From the NCBI GenBank assembly GCA_963787465.1, contig CAWBDD010000025.1, positions 4,306 through 68,305 on the forward strand: 64,000 nucleotides of DNA, written 5' to 3'. Under the pieces are notes generated by a model. It had not been told where the DNA came from and searched no databases. It saw nothing but the letters and a program-made list of their open reading frames with translations. Origin of the DNA: an uncultured Thermoplasmata archaeon. Its GTDB lineage: Archaea; Thermoplasmatota; Thermoplasmata; UBA10834. Positions 4,795-17,716 of the stretch are shown here, piece after piece. Made by a program: the position numbers and the translations under genes. How positions within the stretch are numbered: position 1 is the stretch's first letter; every line of letters begins with the position of its first letter.

Positions 4795-6273
4795 ATGCCG
4801 CGTTCTCCCAAGGGGGGAAGGGATACGGACTTTCTCGCACTAGCGGGAGGCACAAAGTTCCCAGCCCTCGGCTTCTTCCTGCTCATGCTGTTCTCCGGGC
4901 TCTCGTCCGGCGGGCTCGTCCACCTCCCCGATCCGTCCGATACCGTGGAGGACGTCCGACCGGGATGGGCACTCGTCGACGACATGCTCTCCGCGCGCTC
5001 GTTCCCCGTCGCCGTCGGGCTCGAGGACGGGCGCGTGCTCGTCACGGGCGGCCTCATCGACACTAGCGCCAACCGCCACCACAGAGGTGTACGACCCGGA
5101 GCTGGGCTCGTGGTCCTCCGGGCCGACCATGACATCCGCGAGGGTCGGGCACACGGCGACCCTCCTGCAGGACGGGACCGTGCTCGTCTGCGGCGGCGAG
5201 ACCGGAGACCGGGACGACGTCGCGGGCGGAGATCCTCGACGTCGCGACCGGCACCGCGCTCGCTCTCCCGAACATGTACTTCGCGCGGTCGGCGCATTCC
5301 TCGGCCCTGCTGCCGGACGGGAAGGTCCTCGTCACGGGAGGGACCGACTGGGTCTCGGGACCGTGGACGCAGGCGGAGGCCTACGACCCGTCATCCCACT
5401 CATGGCTCCCCGCTGGGAGCATGGCCCGGTCGAGGCTGTCCTTCGCACTCCTGCTCCTCGGGACGGGCGAGGTCCTCGCGGCGGGCGGCGACTCCGGGGG
5501 GACGAGCGAGCTGTACTCCCCGTCCACGGGCACGTGGCACGGCCTCGCCGGCATGCAGGCGAAGAGATACGTCCCATTCGTGCGCAGCGCTCGCCGGCGG
5601 GGAGGTCATCGCCGCCGGAGGGCTGGTCGACGGCGTCACCCTCTCGTCGTGCGAGCTGTACGACCCGATGCTCGAACGCGTGGTCCTCCGGGGCGGCATG
5701 ACCGTCCCGAGGGCGAGGTTCACGCTGTGCGCCCTGCCCGGCGGCGACCTGCTCGCGGCCGGCTCGTGGAGCGACGCCGGGTCCACGGCGACGAGCGAGG
5801 TCTTCGATGGCGACGCGCGCGAGTGGGAGCCCGCGCCCGACATGAACATCGCGCGCGGGGGGCACGCATGCGCGGCCATGGATGACGGGACGGTACTCGT
5901 CGCAGGAGGCGTGAGCGACGGGGTCCCGACCGACACGGCCGAGGTGTACGGTGCCGAGGGGACCGAGCCCACGCCACCCGAGGGCTGCATGGAGCCGGAG
6001 GACATCGTGCCCCTCGTCGTCGCGATCGCGCCCGAGCTCCCCGGGCACTCGGAGAACGGGTTCGTCGCGCAGCTCCTAGCGGCGCAGGCGGAGCTCGACG
6101 AGGGAGACCTCGTCGACTGCCTCCTGATCATGTACGGCTTCTATCATCACGTGCGCGGGTTCTGGAACAGCGGGCACATGAGCGACGCGGGCGCGACCGC
6201 CCTCTACGAGGCGTACGCGGAGGTCGTGTCGTGCCTCGGCTCGGAGCCGCTCCCGCCGTTCGTCGGGACGTAA
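4795..6273 (+). CDS. Secreted Kelch-repeat beta-propeller (about 7 blades) with a C-terminal helical FIMAH-like domain; several frameshifts
   Basis: Repeats of M..AR..H....L.DG.VLV.GG spread over the three + frames (ORFs at 4795, 5087 and 5274). Confidence 0.8.
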   Translation: MPRSPKGGRDTDFLALAGGTKFPALGFFLLMLFSGLSSGGLVHLPDPSDTVEDVRPGWALVDDMLSARSFPVAVGLEDGRVLVTGGLIDTSANRHHRGVRPGAGLVVLRADHDIREGRAHGDPPAGRDRARLRRRDRRPGRRRGRRSSTSRPAPRSLSRTCTSRGRRIPRPCCRTGRSSSREGPTGSRDRGRRRRPTTRHPTHGSPLGAWPGRGCPSHSCSSGRARSSRRAATPGGRASCTPRPRARGTASPACRRRDTSHSCAALAGGEVIAAGGLVDGVTLSSCELYDPMLERVVLRGGMTVPRARFTLCALPGGDLLAAGSWSDAGSTATSEVFDGDAREWEPAPDMNIARGGHACAAMDDGTVLVAGGVSDGVPTDTAEVYGAEGTEPTPPEGCMEPEDIVPLVVAIAPELPGHSENGFVAQLLAAQAELDEGDLVDCLLIMYGFYHHVRGFWNSGHMSDAGATALYEAYAEVVSCLGSEPLPPFVGT

Positions 6274-6424
6274 CGGCGCTACCGCCCGGACCGACGTACA
6301 GAAGTGTGTGTCTGACGCACTCTCGGACTGCCAGGGAATGCTGTCTGACGGAAATTCATTAAATACAATGATGTCTCTCCCGTAGCTCAAGCTCTTGGGA
6401 TGCTGAGCGAGAGGAGGTGACTAG

Positions 6425-7192
6425 ATTAGAATCAGCAAGAGGTTGCTAGCAACAGCTGTCGCTGGCGCGATACTGGTACTGTCCACAGTACTGGTCGTGT
6501 CGATGATTGGCGGCGATGACAAGCCTGACATCAACACCGACATACCGAGCGACGACGAGCAGCCCGACCAGAGCGACGATACGACGCCCACGTCCGATGA
6601 CGACTCCTCATCCGACGACACGACTGACGACGGCACCGACGACGGTTCGGACCTGCCGGTCGACGACGGAGAGGAGGGCGACGACGGCACGTCCGATGAC
6701 GACACGACGGACGACGACTCATCTGATGAAGAGACAGCGGATGACGATGAGACGTCCGACGACGATGACCAGGACGATGCCGACGACGGCGACGACGCCA
6801 CGGACGATGACGACGACTGCGACGACGATGACGATGGATCCGACGACGATTCCGATGACGGGTCCGACGGCAACGCCGGCAGGCACGGCAACGGGAAGAT
6901 GCACGCGTACCAGAGGCACGTCATGAACGCCGCGAAGCAGGTGGAGCTCAAGAACACCTTCGCGAGCGGACTGTCGACATCCATGGACCAACTACTGGTG
7001 AACATGGACAAGCAGGACGTGCAGCAGGACGACGCGGGCCAGCAGGGGCAGCAGGAGGACCAGGTCGATGACACGGTCCCGGCCCCGGCCCAGCCGGCCG
7101 AGCAGCAGCAGGGCGGCGACGACGCTCAGGGTCAGGATGCCGACGACGGCAGCGGCGATGACGATGGCAACTGCAACCGCAACGATCCTTGA
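6425..7192 (+). CDS. Membrane-anchored or secreted Asp-rich low-complexity protein
   Basis: N-terminal hydrophobic helix, long D/E/T tract, then a Q/D-rich tail. Start is ATT at 6425 or TTG at 6443. Confidence 0.7.
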   Translation: MRISKRLLATAVAGAILVLSTVLVVSMIGGDDKPDINTDIPSDDEQPDQSDDTTPTSDDDSSSDDTTDDGTDDGSDLPVDDGEEGDDGTSDDDTTDDDSSDEETADDDETSDDDDQDDADDGDDATDDDDDCDDDDDGSDDDSDDGSDGNAGRHGNGKMHAYQRHVMNAAKQVELKNTFASGLSTSMDQLLVNMDKQDVQQDDAGQQGQQEDQVDDTVPAPAQPAEQQQGGDDAQGQDADDGSGDDDGNCNRNDP

Positions 7193-7420
7193 CTTCACAA
7201 TGAGGTGACGGCGACACCGGAACGGTGACGGAACGAGAGCGCGCGGAAGTGACGGCGGCCCGGCCGCCAGGCGTGATCGCGAGCGACATGCCCTTCACGG
7301 ATCCGCGCTCGAAGACCCGAACCGGACCGGTCCCGCCCCCAACCTCCCCTTCTTCTCCATTTCTCGTTGTCGACGGGCGGAGCCCTCGCTGTCAGAAGGA
7401 TATGCGATCCGGGGCGGCCG

Positions 7421-12418: not shown

Positions 12419-13141
12419 ATGATGTTCATCGATGCCAGAGAGGGCGTCTCCGGCGACATGTTGCTGGCCGCCATGCTCGGCATGCTGCCCGACCGCGAGA
12501 GGGCGGAGGCCGCAGCCGCCCTGACCCGAGCGTGCTCCAGGAGGGGCATCGAGATGAGCGTGTCCGAGGTCGAGGAGGACGGTGATCGCGGGCTCTCGAT
12601 CGCCTACGTATCGAGGTCTCCTGGGAGCGATGGTGCCTCGCGGGACGAGGCGTACGCGGCCCTCGCGGAGATCGAGGCCGAGGTCGGCTCGGGGTCCGCG
12701 GTCGGAAGGAGGATACTCGACACGATCATGGACGCGGAGGCGAAGGCGCACGGAGTCCCCGTGGACCAGGTCCACCTCCACGAGATCGCACGGCCGCAGG
12801 CGATGGTCAACATCGCCGGGATAGGGCTGGTCCACTCGCTCCTCGGACCCGAAGGGGGCGGCGGGTTCGTCTCCTCGACGATCACGACCGGGAGGGGGAT
12901 GGTGGTGGTCAGCCACGGGGCCGTGAGGATACCGGCGCCCGCGTGCAGGTTCCTTCTGGAGGGGATGAACCACACGCCCGGTGACAGCCCCGGCGAGAGG
13001 GCGACGCCAGTGGGCGTCGCGGCGGTCAAGGTGCTCGCGGGCTCCCAGGGAGAGGACGTCCCTGCCGGGAGACGGAGCGTCGGATTCGGGACGAAGCGGT
13101 TCGGCGGGAGGCTCGGAAGGGTCACGCTGGTCAGGGCCTGA
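12419..13141 (+). CDS. LarC/DUF111 family nickel-insertion protein, N-terminal domain only
   Basis: GVSGDMLLAA, EAKAHG...VHLHEI, SHG..RIPAPA, E.ATP.G and GFGTK motifs; only 240 aa. Confidence 0.8.
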   Translation: MMFIDAREGVSGDMLLAAMLGMLPDRERAEAAAALTRACSRRGIEMSVSEVEEDGDRGLSIAYVSRSPGSDGASRDEAYAALAEIEAEVGSGSAVGRRILDTIMDAEAKAHGVPVDQVHLHEIARPQAMVNIAGIGLVHSLLGPEGGGGFVSSTITTGRGMVVVSHGAVRIPAPACRFLLEGMNHTPGDSPGERATPVGVAAVKVLAGSQGEDVPAGRRSVGFGTKRFGGRLGRVTLVRA

Positions 13142-13258
13142 GGCATCGGACACCGTCCCCTGAACGCAAAGGCACAATGATTATCCCAGCAACGGCCCTA
13201 GGCGAATCCGTCAGGACGGCGCAGGCGACGGGTCCGGACGGGTGAGGAGGAGACCGAG

Positions 13259-13513
13259 ATGGCCGAGAAGCACCAGGGGTTCCCGCAGGCCAGCAGGACC
13301 CTCGACTGCATAGGGCTCTACTGCCCCGAACCGGTGTTCAGGACGAGGGAGGAGATCTCGTCGGTCGACGTCGGGCAGGTCCTCGAGGTCCTCGCCGACG
13401 ACCCCGCGTCGGAGTCTGACATACGCAGCTGGGCGAAGCACGCGGGCCACGAGCTGCTGTCGACCGAGAGGGTCGACGGCGGGCTCAGGTTCCTCGTGAG
13501 GCGCCTGGTGTGA
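13259..13513 (+). CDS. tusA: TusA/SirA family sulfur carrier
   Basis: LDCIGLYCPEP (CPxP motif) and LEVLADDP..ESDI. Confidence 0.92.
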   Translation: MAEKHQGFPQASRTLDCIGLYCPEPVFRTREEISSVDVGQVLEVLADDPASESDIRSWAKHAGHELLSTERVDGGLRFLVRRLV

Positions 13514-13526
13514 GGAGCACGAGACG

Positions 13527-13895
13527 ATGACGAAGAAGATACTCTATGTCCAGACCTCGGGGCCGGACGCGCCCGAGAGGCTCTATGCGCCCTTCGTCCT
13601 CGCGAGCACTGCGAGGGCGATGGGCATCGACGCGACCGTCTACTTCATCGCGAAGGGGATCCTCGGCGCCTTGAAGGGCGTCCCGGAGACGGTCAAGATG
13701 GGCAGCTTCCCGAGCCTCAAGGAGGTCATCGACCAGGCCTCGAAGGCAGGGGTCCAGATGATGGTCTGCGCCCAGAGCGCACAGCTCTGGGGGAAAAGGG
13801 CGCAGCCCGAGGAGTTCATCGAGGGGACGAAGGTCGTCGGCGCCGCGACCCTGAACGACCTCGCGCTGGAATACGACGCCGTGCTGACTTTCTGA
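13527..13895 (+). CDS. DsrE/DsrF family sulfur-relay protein
   Basis: DsrE-like pattern with a single Cys in VCAQS; ends ...VVGAATL...VLTF. Confidence 0.85.
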   Translation: MTKKILYVQTSGPDAPERLYAPFVLASTARAMGIDATVYFIAKGILGALKGVPETVKMGSFPSLKEVIDQASKAGVQMMVCAQSAQLWGKRAQPEEFIEGTKVVGAATLNDLALEYDAVLTF

Positions 13896-13908
13896 GGAGG
13901 TGTCCCCG

Positions 13909-15156
13909 ATGCAATCCCCCGGCAAGGCGAGAAGGGTCTACATGGACTACGGGGCGGCCTCCCCGGTCGACCCGAGGGTGGTCGACGCCATGCTCCCGTT
14001 CTTCACGGACGCTTTCGGCAACCCGTCGTCGCTCCATTCCTCCGGGAGGGAGCCCAAGAGGGCGGTCGACGACGCGAGGGCGAAGGTGGCGGCGCTGCTG
14101 AACGCCGGCAAGAGGGAGGAGGTCGTGTTCACGTCCGGTGGCACGGAGGCGAGCAACCTCGGCATCAAGGGCGTCGCCATGAGGCTCAGGAACGAGGGGG
14201 ACCACATCGTCACCTCGGCGATCGAGCACATCTCCGTGCTGAACATCATGAAGGCGCTCCAGAAGTCCGGGTTCGAGGTCACGCTCGTCCCCCCGACGAA
14301 GGAAGGCTTCGTCGACGTCGCCGCGCTGGAAGCGGCGGTGAGGAAGGGGACCGTGCTCGTCTCCGTCATGCTCGCGAACAACGAGATAGGCACCATACAG
14401 CCGATCGACGCGATCGGCAGGATGCTGGAGCAGAAGGACGTCTACTTCCACGTGGACGCCGTCGCGGCCGCTGGCAGGATACCGATCGATGTGCAGGCGT
14501 CGAAGGTGGACCTGATGTCCGTCTCGTCCAACGACATGTACGGCCCCAAGGGCGTCGGAGCGCTCTACGTCAGGGACGGCACCAGGATAGAGGCCGTCGG
14601 GCAGGGGGGCGGGCAGGAGCGCGGGCTGAGGTCCGGCTCCGAGAACGTCCCGGGCATAGTCGGCTTCGGGAGGGCCGCGGAGATCGCGAAGGCCGAGATG
14701 GCGTCGGAGGGCGAGAGGCTCACAGGGCTCAGGGACCGGCTGATATCGGGCATGTTGGGGGCGACCGATGATATCTTCCTCAACGGCCACCCGAGGACGC
14801 GGCTGCCGAACAACGCGAACTTCAGGTTCCGGTACGTCGAGGGCGAGTCGATGCTGCTCAACCTCGACATGGCGGGCATCTCCGTCTCGTCGAGCTCGCC
14901 CTGCACGTCGAAGAGCCTCCTCCCGTCGCACGTGCTGCTCGCATGCGATGTCCCGACGGAGGAGGCGCAGAGCGCGGTGCAGTTCACCCTCGGCCGCGGG
15001 AACACGGACGAGGACGTCGACTATGTCCTCGGGGTCGTGCCCGGGATCGTCAAGAAGCTGCGGGCGATGTCGCCCTTCAGCCCGGGGAACCTAGCGGAGA
15101 TGAGAGAGTCCGCGGGACACCGGGAGCGGGACCACCACCGCGATGCCCATATGTGA
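13909..15156 (+). CDS. iscS: IscS/NifS-like cysteine desulfurase homolog lacking the PLP lysine
   Basis: GNPSSLH, FTSGGTEASN, NNEIGTIQP and RSGSENV; Cys loop SSPCTS; SSNDMYGPKG in place of SxHKxxGPKG. Confidence 0.9.
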   Translation: MQSPGKARRVYMDYGAASPVDPRVVDAMLPFFTDAFGNPSSLHSSGREPKRAVDDARAKVAALLNAGKREEVVFTSGGTEASNLGIKGVAMRLRNEGDHIVTSAIEHISVLNIMKALQKSGFEVTLVPPTKEGFVDVAALEAAVRKGTVLVSVMLANNEIGTIQPIDAIGRMLEQKDVYFHVDAVAAAGRIPIDVQASKVDLMSVSSNDMYGPKGVGALYVRDGTRIEAVGQGGGQERGLRSGSENVPGIVGFGRAAEIAKAEMASEGERLTGLRDRLISGMLGATDDIFLNGHPRTRLPNNANFRFRYVEGESMLLNLDMAGISVSSSSPCTSKSLLPSHVLLACDVPTEEAQSAVQFTLGRGNTDEDVDYVLGVVPGIVKKLRAMSPFSPGNLAEMRESAGHRERDHHRDAHM

Positions 15157-15241
15157 GCGTCGTGCGCGTCCGCACGCGCACGTGCACCATATATAGCGAC
15201 GTGTGGGAAAACAGCACCAGTCAGGAGACTTTTTCACGAAA

Positions 15242-15251
15242 CTTATATATA
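15242..15251 (+). promoter_or_regulatory. TATA box upstream of the large surface protein
   Basis: CTTATATATA preceded by a purine-rich BRE-like GAAA, about 36 nt before the ATG at 15287. Confidence 0.65.
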
Positions 15252-15286
15252 TCGACCATCAAATAATGGCCTGGATGGGAAAGCCT

Positions 15287-17716
15287 ATGAAAAATAGGAT
15301 TCTAGGAATAGTGCTAGCCCTTTGCCTGTTGGCGGTAGCCTTCGTCGCTGTCCCTACGGACGCTGCGATCTACTACACGGGCAGTGTGCAGACGACTGAT
15401 GACACGGGCGACTCCCAGGACATGTACTACCGCGGCGACAGGGTCTATGTCGCCGTCGAGGCGTACTACATGGGAGAGCCCTCGACCGTCGATATACTCG
15501 TCGAACTTGTGAGCCAGTCGGGCACGACCGTCTCCTCGTTCTACGCGACCACGGATGACCCGGACGTAGGCGTCTACGACAGCTGGTCGGCGTTGCCGAC
15601 CCACTGGCTGACGACCAACAGCCTGAGCTTCGTGAGCGGCGTCGCCGTCGGCGATGTCGTGGTGAGCGCGTGGGACGGCTGGGACTACGTCGAGTTCGAC
15701 AGGGCCCAGATAATGGTCAAGGACGAGGGACTGACCGTCAGCCCCGACGCCTGGATGTTCTACCCCGGCGAGACCGTGACGATAACCTTGATCACGGCCG
15801 AGACGGTGGACTTCTATGTCGAGGTCGTCAACGAGACCTATGACGACATAGAGAACTGGACCAACGAGGAGGCAGTCGACGGCTACTGGAGCATCGTGTG
15901 GGTAATACCCTCCGACACCCCCGACGACGTGTACATGATAAACGTCAGGGAGGAGTCCAACCACGACATATGGTACACATACTGGATGAGCATCCAGATG
16001 TACGAGCTCCTCGTCGACGCGAACAGGTACAACGTCCTGCCGGGCGAGACGGTCGACATCTACTACGAGGTAGTGGAGATAGCGACCATGACCAGCTACG
16101 AGCTGGTCACGCTCGAGTGGCAGGCCGAGTGGCAGAACGAGTCGGGCAACTACACCTACGACGACGGGACGATGCCCGGCAGCGCAGGCACCTGGCAGTT
16201 CGATGTTCCGACGAACATAGCCCCCTACTCGTGGATCTATCTCACGTTCTGGGCGAACGACACCGACGACAGGGTCGCAGAGACATGGGTGACCCTGACG
16301 ATCGGCCCGCTCATGGCTGAGCTCACCCTGGACGACGGCCCCTATGTGCCGGGAGAGACGGTCAGCACCGAGGTCTATGTCAGCGTGTTCAACGACGACT
16401 ACTGGAGCTGGGACAACCTCCCGGGCGCCACGGTGGACGTATCGGTCTCGTTCAACGACACCGATATCCCTGAGTACGGCGTCAGCGGACTCGTCACCGA
16501 CGTGAGCGGCACGGTATCGCACGACTTCGACCTGTCGCAGAACGCCACGCAGGGCGCGTACATCGTGACGGTCACCGTCTCGAAGCTCGACTACGAGGTC
16601 GAGCTGATGGCGGTCTTCTCCGTCGGGTACACCGGCGAGCTCAGCGTGGAGTTCGACAAGGAGTACTACTACTCCGGGCAGATAGCGACCTTCGGCTTCA
16701 CGGCCTACTGGAACAACCAGGAGATCCAGAGCGAGTCGATATTCTACCTGGTCTACGACGACATCGGCCTCGTCTTCACGGACAACACGACGACGGGCAC
16801 TGGTGCGTACCAGATCAACAGCACCTATGTCGGCGGCCTGTGGATCGAGGCGGTCATGAACCTCGACGGGTACATGCTCAACGGATATGCAGCGACCGAT
16901 GTCGAGATGGCAGACGTCGTGCTCACGCCGTCGAGCAGCGAGTACAGGCCCGGGGACAACGTGGTCTTCACGTACAGCATCATAACGGAGATCTCGACCG
17001 CGGACCTGAGCTACAGCATCGTCGATGACATGGGCGTCGAGGTCCAGAGCGGAGACCTGTCGTTCGTGCAGATGGGGTCGTTCAACCTGACGGTGCCCGC
17101 CAAGCCGGCGGAGTCGTACACCGCGACGGTGACGATGAACGACAACCTCGGCCACATAGTGAGCGACACGGCGACGACCTGGCTGGCGACATACCACGAG
17201 ATCAACATCTGGCTGATCTCCAGCTCCGGGTTCACATCGAGGGCCTTCGAGCCTGGGACGACGCTGACCTTCGGGTACAGCATCGACTCCTACGCAGGGA
17301 CCGACCTCGAGGTGTACGAGATCCGGATCTACAACTACGGCGACGATGTCAACTTCAGGCTGCTCGTGACCGCCGCGGACGGAGAGTTCACCTACCAGAT
17401 CCCCGAGACCGCCCTCGACGGCGGGTACGGGGTCGAGTGCGACCTCTACGACCCGATCTCGAACACGTACTGGGACTACGACTACGTGTCCTACACGGTC
17501 ATGAAGGACCAGTCGACGTGGGACAAGTCGATCGGAGGACTCGACGTCTTCGAGGTCATGGTGCTCCTGTTGCTGGCGCTGATCATCGTGGTGCTCATAG
17601 TCATGCCCTTCGTCAAGGGCAGGATGGGCGCCCCGAAGAAGCCCAAGGCCGAGCCGGCGATGCAGATGCCCACGCCCGCGCCCCCGCCCGCAGAGGGGAA
17701 CCCCCCGAGCGGCTGA
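15287..17716 (+). CDS. Large acidic surface glycoprotein with about 7 Ig/MG-like repeats (S-layer candidate)
   Basis: Signal peptide; repeated Y.PG(E/D)TV motif; many NxS/T sequons; C-terminal TM and Pro-rich tail. Confidence 0.75.
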   Translation: MKNRILGIVLALCLLAVAFVAVPTDAAIYYTGSVQTTDDTGDSQDMYYRGDRVYVAVEAYYMGEPSTVDILVELVSQSGTTVSSFYATTDDPDVGVYDSWSALPTHWLTTNSLSFVSGVAVGDVVVSAWDGWDYVEFDRAQIMVKDEGLTVSPDAWMFYPGETVTITLITAETVDFYVEVVNETYDDIENWTNEEAVDGYWSIVWVIPSDTPDDVYMINVREESNHDIWYTYWMSIQMYELLVDANRYNVLPGETVDIYYEVVEIATMTSYELVTLEWQAEWQNESGNYTYDDGTMPGSAGTWQFDVPTNIAPYSWIYLTFWANDTDDRVAETWVTLTIGPLMAELTLDDGPYVPGETVSTEVYVSVFNDDYWSWDNLPGATVDVSVSFNDTDIPEYGVSGLVTDVSGTVSHDFDLSQNATQGAYIVTVTVSKLDYEVELMAVFSVGYTGELSVEFDKEYYYSGQIATFGFTAYWNNQEIQSESIFYLVYDDIGLVFTDNTTTGTGAYQINSTYVGGLWIEAVMNLDGYMLNGYAATDVEMADVVLTPSSSEYRPGDNVVFTYSIITEISTADLSYSIVDDMGVEVQSGDLSFVQMGSFNLTVPAKPAESYTATVTMNDNLGHIVSDTATTWLATYHEINIWLISSSGFTSRAFEPGTTLTFGYSIDSYAGTDLEVYEIRIYNYGDDVNFRLLVTAADGEFTYQIPETALDGGYGVECDLYDPISNTYWDYDYVSYTVMKDQSTWDKSIGGLDVFEVMVLLLLALIIVVLIVMPFVKGRMGAPKKPKAEPAMQMPTPAPPPAEGNPPSG

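Follow-up and report, generated by a model that had tools for sequence, protein, structure and literature searches.

A tusA/dsrE-linked IscS homologue without the catalytic lysine, and without an adjoining iscU, in an uncultured Thermoplasmata archaeon

Introduction

What part can an IscS-type protein play in sulfur transfer once the lysine that binds its pyridoxal 5'-phosphate (PLP) cofactor has been replaced? The question is raised by three genes (tusA, dsrE and an iscS homologue) in the genome of an uncultured Thermoplasmata archaeon (1.62 Mb, 68% complete), found within the 64,000-nucleotide stretch of DNA that we analysed (contig C25, positions 4306-68305; hereafter the window, whose own numbering is used unless a contig or locus is named). 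An earlier note, made from the letters of this DNA, had taken the trio for a candidate non-canonical sulfur relay. Here, we report that the trio is a real operon under selection, and that its IscS homologue, in which the Lys-to-Asp change is in itself already known, is a lysine-less IscS of the Archaeoglobus fulgidus type. Sequence comparison further places it in a TusA/DsrE-linked module of lysine-less IscS proteins that is widespread among archaea, the IscU-less form of which (the one present in the window) appears to be new.

The operon and its IscS homologue

The features on which the argument rests are:

13259-13513, + strand: tusA, encoding an 84-amino-acid sulfur carrier (PF01206, 2.8e-23)

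13527-13895, + strand: dsrE, encoding a 122-amino-acid, putatively DsrE3-like sulfur carrier (PF02635, 1.2e-21)

13900-15156, + strand: gene of the IscS/NifS-type protein without the lysine (PF00266, Aminotran_5, 4.3e-73)

14464-14466, + strand: Ala189 (codon GCG), replacing the Gln of DAxQ

14530-14535, + strand: Asn211-Asp212 (codons AAC GAC, in SSNDMYGPKG), where the PLP Schiff-base motif has His-Lys

14890-14979, + strand: cysteine-loop region, residues 331-360, holding seven of the ten clade-fixed substitutions

By direct reading, the three genes lie head-to-tail on the + strand, separated by gaps of 13 nucleotides (nt) each (13514-13526 and 13896-13908) and with GGAGG or GGAG 5' of every start codon, which bears out the initial description of three co-oriented genes with Shine-Dalgarno-like motifs. 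The second gap is measured to ATG 13909, the probable start of the iscS homologue; the longest open reading frame (ORF) begins at GTG 13900, from which its residues are numbered here, and ends at 15156. The anomalies first noticed in this protein were recovered in the same way: SSNDMYGPKG occupies the place of the Schiff-base motif, the DAVAAAG segment (14455-14475) is devoid of the Gln, and the mobile-loop cysteine is kept as Cys335 (TGC, 14902-14904, within SSSSPCTSK).

We give practically no credence to an assembly error or a decaying pseudogene as the origin of these replacements. No letter differs at 14530-14535 in the contigs of two other studies that cover the site (X2 record 13, 842 nt; X4 record 30, 151 nt, with zero differences), and both the ND motif and Cys335 recur in all 80 related loci (from a scan with NDMYGPKG among its patterns), so that the loss of the lysine is, as the earlier note had argued, no base-calling error. 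The frame is open and of full length, the ratio of non-synonymous to synonymous substitution rates (dN/dS) ranges from 0.13 to 0.33 across the three genes (15 pairwise comparisons, five relatives) and from 0.21 to 0.33 for the iscS homologue, and the trio proteins are the best conserved locally (mean identity 73-75%, vs. 54% for LarC1, encoded upstream, and 42% for the surface protein encoded downstream).

The top NCBIfam matches of the IscS homologue were NifS and IscS models, yet it scored below every desulfurase equivalog cut-off (496.8 vs. 530.75 for NifS; 433 vs. 548; 421.7 vs. 643.2 for IscS); with a score under the curated cut-off and the catalytic Lys absent, it does not qualify as a canonical cysteine desulfurase. 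Among solved proteins it is most closely related to A. fulgidus IscS (4eb5/4eb7/4hvk; phmmer E-value 2.1e-133, residues 13-393), and it aligns to the SSND of 4eb5, which agrees with the statement of the earlier note that both proteins carry the same Lys-to-Asp change. Membership of the A. fulgidus type is indicated by the class-V aminotransferase sequence, the Asp in place of the PLP lysine, the loop Cys and the placement in the clade; the IscU that adjoins the members of this type is missing beside the window gene. Cys335 is invariant in a 37-row alignment (A4). The protein also keeps the GGTEASN segment, His110, Asp186, Ser209 and Arg367 (of TLGR), which we take to be cofactor-pocket residues from the roles of their counterparts in E. 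coli IscS.

Conserved linkage to tusA, dsrE and iscU

The gene neighbourhood was surveyed in 80 lysine-less loci, with counts restricted to those having enough flanking sequence (at least 400 bp upstream for tusA). Upstream tusA was found in 76 of 79 loci overall (17/17 from the Thermoplasmata and 59/62 of the others), and dsrE in 16/17 and 32/62, respectively, which substantiates the view of TusA and DsrE as the partners of the protein. The distribution of iscU is different: it lies directly downstream in none of the 18 Thermoplasmata loci, vs. 56 of the 59 other lysine-less loci. Thus, the combination is more than a local peculiarity, being an archaeal module of wide occurrence that normally reads tusA-(dsrE)-iscS(no Lys)-iscU.

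A control scan of metagenome contigs, for which the search patterns were placed away from the lysine motif, recovered another 80 loci, 76 with the lysine and 4 without. Neither tusA nor dsrE occurred in the fetched flanks of the 76 lysine-bearing loci (70 of which had at least 400 bp upstream), and iscU was near 50 of them. As for the four lysine-less loci, tusA was present in all three that could be assessed (the fourth begins at a contig end) and iscU in all four. The association of tusA with the lysine-less state (3/3 vs. 0/70) gives a Fisher p = 1.6e-5, a significance inflated by kinship. The DAxQ position followed the same division, with Ala in 4/4 lysine-less genes and Gln in 76/76 lysine-bearing ones.

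The tusA/dsrE link recurs with other substitutions of the lysine and in another gene order. In L118 (2280-4726; genome G028, from another Thermoplasmata family) the order is tusA-dsrE-iscS-iscU and the lysine is changed to Glu (LPSNEIYGPKG, with DATSALG), and in the metagenome contig L189 (1603-4161) an IscS with an NQ motif, belonging to a second lysine-less clade, heads the order iscS-iscU-dsrE-tusA. The IscS of L118 is also the sole strong IscS homologue found in G028 at E <= 1e-30.

Second IscS loci were fetched from 20 kin; 19 of them carry the Lys, the twentieth being L118. The 19 Lys-bearing loci have iscU as the next gene in every case and a divergent SufS-like gene upstream in 18, and neither tusA nor dsrE stands beside any of them (0/19). 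Hence, among the examined kin, tusA and dsrE accompany the lysine-less paralogue only. No statement of a TusA/DsrE link to lysine-less IscS was found in the searched literature, a search to which subscription papers and supplements (including those of the MIS phylogenomics) were external.

Phylogenetic placement

The nearest 150 representatives at 50% identity (drawn from 1.84 billion proteins) comprised 137 sequences with the lysine and 13 without. Odinarchaeum was among the few organism names attached to the closest lysine-less representatives. In both trees that we computed (support being of the Shimodaira-Hasegawa (SH)-like kind only), the ND sequences fell into a single clade made up of lysine-less rows: 86 of 139 rows with support of 99 in FastTree, and 35 of 67 rows with 99 SH-like approximate likelihood-ratio test (SH-aLRT) support in the quick IQ-TREE run. 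This main clade also includes NE, NS, SA, GP and SD variants. The quick IQ-TREE run additionally recovered a second, smaller lysine-less clade, composed of L189, P0141, P0160, P0195, P0218, P0223 and P0251 (motifs NQ, QG, QQ, HT, HR and RS).

Within the main clade the Thermoplasmata subclade has strong support (19 rows at 100 in FastTree; 9 rows at 100 in the quick IQ-TREE run), and its neighbour in the tree is one representative, P0121. Mapping gene neighbourhoods on to the tree, a check proposed in the earlier note, placed the Asp variants in a tusA/dsrE-linked clade that is lysine-less throughout, with iscU missing next door throughout the Thermoplasmata subclade. Since an IscU-linked clade and the IscU-linked L118 branch surround this subclade in the (unrooted) trees, a loss of the iscU linkage within it would be the more economical reading.

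Two lysine-less loci (L076, L081) come from records labelled Acidobacteriota (Acidiferrales, Acidoferrum), and nest among Bathyarchaeia sequences, from which 0.04-0.07 substitutions per site separate them; this may reflect either contamination during binning or a transfer of recent date.

The IscU-less family and its paralogues

The window genome was compared with 24 other genomes of its family and with 16 outside it. A full-length lysine-less copy (68-83% identical) is present in 20 of the 24, and fragments of it in one more; an intact Lys-bearing paralogue (~52% identical) occurs in 22, is split in G001 and was not found in one more. No copy with more than 60% identity was detected in the 16 genomes outside the family. 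In five family genomes the lone strong IscU directly follows the Lys-bearing IscS, at a great distance from the gene without the lysine (sites at 1.17 and 1.73 Mb in G010). In G001, which belongs to the genus of the window genome, the gene of the Lys-bearing IscS (C1:148522-149683) is split by an in-frame TAG into two pieces that overlap, and may be broken.

The window genome itself holds a canonical iscS(Lys)-iscU pair on contig C22, a SufS-like gene, and a second, three-cysteine IscU-like gene on contig C4 (NifU_N match at C4:10180-10539). As these are the only two NifU_N matches of the genome and the window lies on C25, the remark that the window is devoid of iscU holds, and the search for iscU and a canonical iscS elsewhere in the genome, advised in the earlier note, was successful on both counts. 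That note had also named a case that would speak against it, in which the linkage is not conserved and the protein simply pairs with an IscU encoded elsewhere: the linkage to tusA/dsrE proved to be kept, and IscU genes are indeed encoded elsewhere. SufBD was not found, from which (in a genome 68% complete) nothing is concluded.

The surroundings of the IscU-like gene on C4 include an Nbp35/ApbC-type ATPase (5940-6812 of locus L098, 1849-7205) next to another DsrE (6819-7205), both assigned by Pfam, as well as a NifX-like protein and two P-loop ATPases with ferredoxin domains, read from the ORF sequences. We read the cluster as a probable second iron-sulfur maturation cluster.

A comparison of the 19 IscU-less sequences with 62 others revealed ten positions that are fixed differently in the two sets. 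Seven of these (G332S, A334P, T339S, H353T, H357Q, G358S and S359A) fall within residues 331-360, for which about 0.7 fixed changes would be expected by chance in a 30-residue stretch (by our own arithmetic). Such changes fit an altered partner at the sulfur-handling face of the protein, without specifying which.

In at least one genome, G041, no full-length IscS/SufS-like gene was found other than the lysine-less one. The idea that the module replaces all cysteine desulfurases was nonetheless rejected as a general rule, as four of five other module genomes have another strong Aminotran_5 gene.

The carriers and known counterparts

The window TusA is a clear family member (82 bits vs. a cut-off of 28.6 for PF01206, with Cys22, at 13322-13324, in a CPEP motif), although it stays below the equivalog cut-off for E. 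coli TusA (64 vs. 78). It has a second cysteine, Cys17 (13307-13309); a 37-row alignment (A2) shows Cys22 in every row and Cys17 in 90% or more. The other TusA of the genome, which is without Cys17, is followed on C22 (locus L099, 1775-5268) by three DsrE-like genes that make up a TusBCD/DsrEFH-like set, adjoining a DUF5591-TGT-PUA protein of archaeosine-synthase-like architecture. The window DsrE (77.5 bits vs. a cut-off of 22.7 for PF02635) has a single cysteine, Cys81 (13767-13769, in VCAQS), invariant in 37 rows; its only solved relative, Sulfolobus solfataricus 3mc3 (1.4e-15), aligns with VCVQS. It would be a DsrE3-like protein, of subgroup A, B or C.

According to PMC8918507, A. fulgidus IscS is a paralogue that is inactive, has Asp199 where the lysine would be and binds pyridoxamine 5'-phosphate (PMP); it is thought to give one Cys ligand to the [2Fe-2S] cluster of IscU (PMC8918507, PMC7585200); the sulfur supply of this IscS-IscU cluster is called an open question in passages of the former. 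This protein (4HVK; 4EB5/4EB7 with IscU; D199K variant, 4R5F) shares SSND-YGPKG, the Ala for the DAxQ Gln and the loop Cys with the window IscS. It was crystallised in complex with IscU, whereas the window IscS has no adjoining iscU, and the loop differs (SSSSPCTSK in the window vs. GSAC), as does the HEEAHG segment, which has become TEEAQS in the window. Methanosarcina acetivorans IscS1 (MA0808, isc1 cluster) is likewise reported to be without the lysine (PMC7585200) and, unlike the window IscS, is IscU-linked.

E. coli TusA, the nearest solved relative of the window TusA (1dcj/3lvj, 1.2e-12), docks on IscS (3LVJ), shares the CPEP Cys and has an Ala at the position aligned with Cys17. The E. 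coli TusA receives its sulfur from an IscS that is active; since the window IscS should be unable to make a persulfide, the flow would here be reversed. The pairing of a DsrE3-type protein with TusA is shared with DsrE3A-TusA of Metallosphaera cuprina and with the sHdr-associated TusA/DsrE3 cascade, for which a preferred DsrE3-to-TusA direction is described (PMC4175335; 10.1101/2023.12.18.572138); these systems feed dissimilatory sulfur oxidation by way of sHdr, whereas the window trio has no shdr genes alongside. Lastly, the minimal ISC system (MIS, MisS-MisU) of archaea, defined in PMC13066941 as desulfurase plus scaffold, has an IscS-type protein without chaperone or carrier genes (the window genome has a plain iscS-iscU pair), in contrast to the trio, whose locus lacks both an active desulfurase and a scaffold.

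A putative persulfide relay and its rivals

We propose, tentatively and at slightly under an even chance, that the trio is a cysteine-independent persulfide relay, in which sulfur passes from DsrE/TusA to Cys335 of the IscS homologue and feeds a scaffold in trans. DsrE (through Cys81) and TusA (through Cys22, aided by Cys17) would obtain their sulfane sulfur from donors of the polysulfide or thiosulfate type, a loading shown in vitro for relatives of the carriers (10.1101/2023.12.18.572138), or from the active desulfurases of the cell. TusA would then dock on the IscS homologue and hand the sulfur to the mobile-loop Cys335, a step suggested by the gene linkage, by the invariance of the cysteines and by the precedent of IscS-TusA in E. 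coli; Cys17 might (speculatively) be a resolving thiol, by which sulfide is set free. The loaded IscS homologue would serve as persulfide adaptor, possibly as cluster ligand, for an iron-sulfur scaffold, a step modelled on the published A. fulgidus work and on the usual iscU neighbour. Because no iscU adjoins the trio in the Thermoplasmata family, this acceptor would be met in trans, as the canonical IscU (C22) or the IscU-like protein (C4).

With Asp for the PLP lysine, the IscS homologue should be unable to form a persulfide from cysteine. The suggestion that it accepts or scaffolds sulfur, rather than extracting it from cysteine, gains from the A. fulgidus-type character of the protein and from its conserved TusA/DsrE partners, and such a role fits the data better than cysteine desulfuration. 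We infer which way the sulfur flows, where the sulfane sulfur comes from and which protein accepts it; pairing with IscU in trans is, in our estimation, the most likely of the readings considered. The link between lysine-less IscS and TusA/DsrE names candidate sulfur donors for the question posed by the A. fulgidus-type IscS-IscU. The window may be seen as a natural dissection, with a relay trio without scaffold gene, next to an intact cysteine-fed iscS-iscU in the same genome, and with changes focused on the acceptor-facing loop, and it allows one to ask if a protein of this lysine-less type depends on IscU as its partner or can serve more generally as an adaptor for persulfide.

Several points weigh against a relay to IscU. 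Not one of the 18 Thermoplasmata loci has an adjoining iscU, and with seven of the ten clade-fixed changes lying round the cysteine loop the acceptor may no longer be IscU. The genome has a complete iscS(Lys)-iscU pair and a SufS-like gene, so that IscU has no evident need of a further sulfur supply, and another strong class-V PLP enzyme is found in four of the five other module genomes. No ready source of sulfane sulfur suggests itself in an anaerobe. The 80-locus survey had NDMYGPKG among its patterns, which biases its sampling, and the kin in it are not independent of each other. A complex prediction for IscS with TusA and DsrE (DsrE as partner) scored 0.02 against a mark of 0.32, and counts neither way.

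The same relay chemistry might instead operate in a module uncoupled from IscU, with the persulfide delivered to [4Fe-4S] sulfur insertases (LarE, tRNA thiolases); we consider this, the main rival, unlikely, though worth reckoning with. The missing iscU and the diverged cysteine-loop region of the Thermoplasmata loci are in keeping with it, as is the gene immediately 5' of tusA:

12419-13141, + strand: gene of the N-terminal half of LarC (larC1), nickel-insertion protein family (PF01969, 5.5e-34)

This gene ends 117 nt 5' of tusA, outside the conserved trio, and may be co-transcribed with it: a contig from an RNA library covers 13052-13260 with 0 mismatches, running from larC1 through the spacer into the start of tusA, a weak hint of transcription (the run, X11, consists of contigs with partial cover, and DNA carry-over is possible). 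The genome further encodes a LarE with a CxxC...C motif, a next ORF that we read from its sequence as LarB, and LarA, and the [4Fe-4S] LarE of Thermotoga maritima is reported to take sulfane sulfur from IscS persulfide and not from Na2S (PMC9283937). Two metagenome contigs (L186, 1982-5161; L196, 1981-5164) carry overlapping larC-larE-iscS(Lys) genes, which hint at IscS-type proteins as in vivo sulfur donors of LarE. In these contigs larC encodes 410 amino acids, the gene read as larE from its sequence is a PP-loop gene of 266-269 amino acids, and a larB-like reading lies divergently upstream.

The wider distribution argues against a tie to Lar. An upstream LarC N-half gene was found in 12 of the 18 Thermoplasmata loci by phmmer (11 by BLASTP at half-length coverage), and LarC was detected beside none of the 62 other lysine-less loci. 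As the whole region is syntenic across the family, the larC1 adjacency counts as one historical event. In genera g1-g3 LarE is present in 17/17 genomes and LarC in 16/17; in genus g4, LarE and LarC were found in 0/7 each (two single-contig genomes being among the seven), yet lysine-less IscS is kept in 5/7. The trio was seen in five loci assigned to g4 (L022, L024-L027), none with LarC1; coordinates verify the assignment for L025 = G011 only, where the trio is intact. The co-occurrence expected of a nickel-pincer accessory is therefore lacking, and a role dedicated to nickel-pincer synthesis appears weakened. The earlier suggestion of such a role keeps the LarC N-half upstream and the LarE, LarB and LarA of the genome in its favour, and loses by the g4 genomes that have the trio without LarE or LarC.

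A further reading, which we rate as decidedly unlikely, would have the lysine-less IscS of the family freed from IscU and turned into a second, desulfurase-independent sulfur hub: DsrE3 and the two-cysteine TusA would load Cys335 from polysulfide or thiosulfate, and the reshaped loop would serve LarE, tRNA thiolases and IscU-type scaffolds in trans, in parallel to the cysteine-fed iscS-iscU.

The protein could also carry no sulfur at all and act as a decoy or regulator that binds TusA, DsrE or IscU and tunes the flow from the Lys-bearing IscS. The competition of TusA and IscU for E. coli IscS, which is described as steering the sulfur flux (PMC11302665), lends some colour to this, and the family keeps both paralogues (the full-length lysine-less copy in 20/24 genomes, the intact Lys-bearing one in 22/24, split in G001). 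Against it, a pure decoy would have no need for Cys335, which is invariant across phyla, and in G041 there is no other full-length IscS/SufS-like gene for it to regulate among those found; we deem it quite improbable. Another PLP- or PMP-dependent activity, on a non-cysteine substrate or with a non-covalently held cofactor and with TusA/DsrE accepting the product, would account for the rest of the cofactor pocket being kept, and A. fulgidus IscS does still bind PMP (PMC8918507). The same source reports that protein to be without desulfurase activity and its D199K variant to be PMP-bound as well, and the pocket Gln, His and Lys have changed jointly and are fixed in every examined member of the clade, which renders such an activity highly improbable.

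Genes around the trio

The trio is surrounded in the window by genes for a subtilase, BacA, a PKD protein, a zinc-ribbon protein, LarC1 and a surface protein. The LarC N-half gene matches positions 2-223 of 375 of its Pfam model, and just misses the cut-off of TIGR00299 (89.8 vs. 90 bits). The window copy, all 16 matches of family f1 and all 3 of family f2 comprise the N-terminal half only (model positions ~1-235 of 375); the C-terminal (CTP-binding) half was not found in the window, f1 or f2 genomes, each of which has a single LarC match. G034, of another family, has an N-terminal match only (1-200), and the more distant G031 a full-length gene. Several of the LarC matches bear one or two in-frame TGA codons.

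A hairpin that directly follows the stop codon of iscS (15157-15185) has no folding advantage over shuffled sequences (z = -0.97), and a sigma-70/terminator scan, whose coverage excludes archaeal promoters, returned nothing on the + strand. Beyond an A+T-rich spacer (15160-15290) lies a gene (15203-17716) for an 837-amino-acid protein with MG2 and alpha-2-macroglobulin bait-region domains and a C-terminal membrane anchor, which is kept in 18 of 18 related loci at 42% identity.

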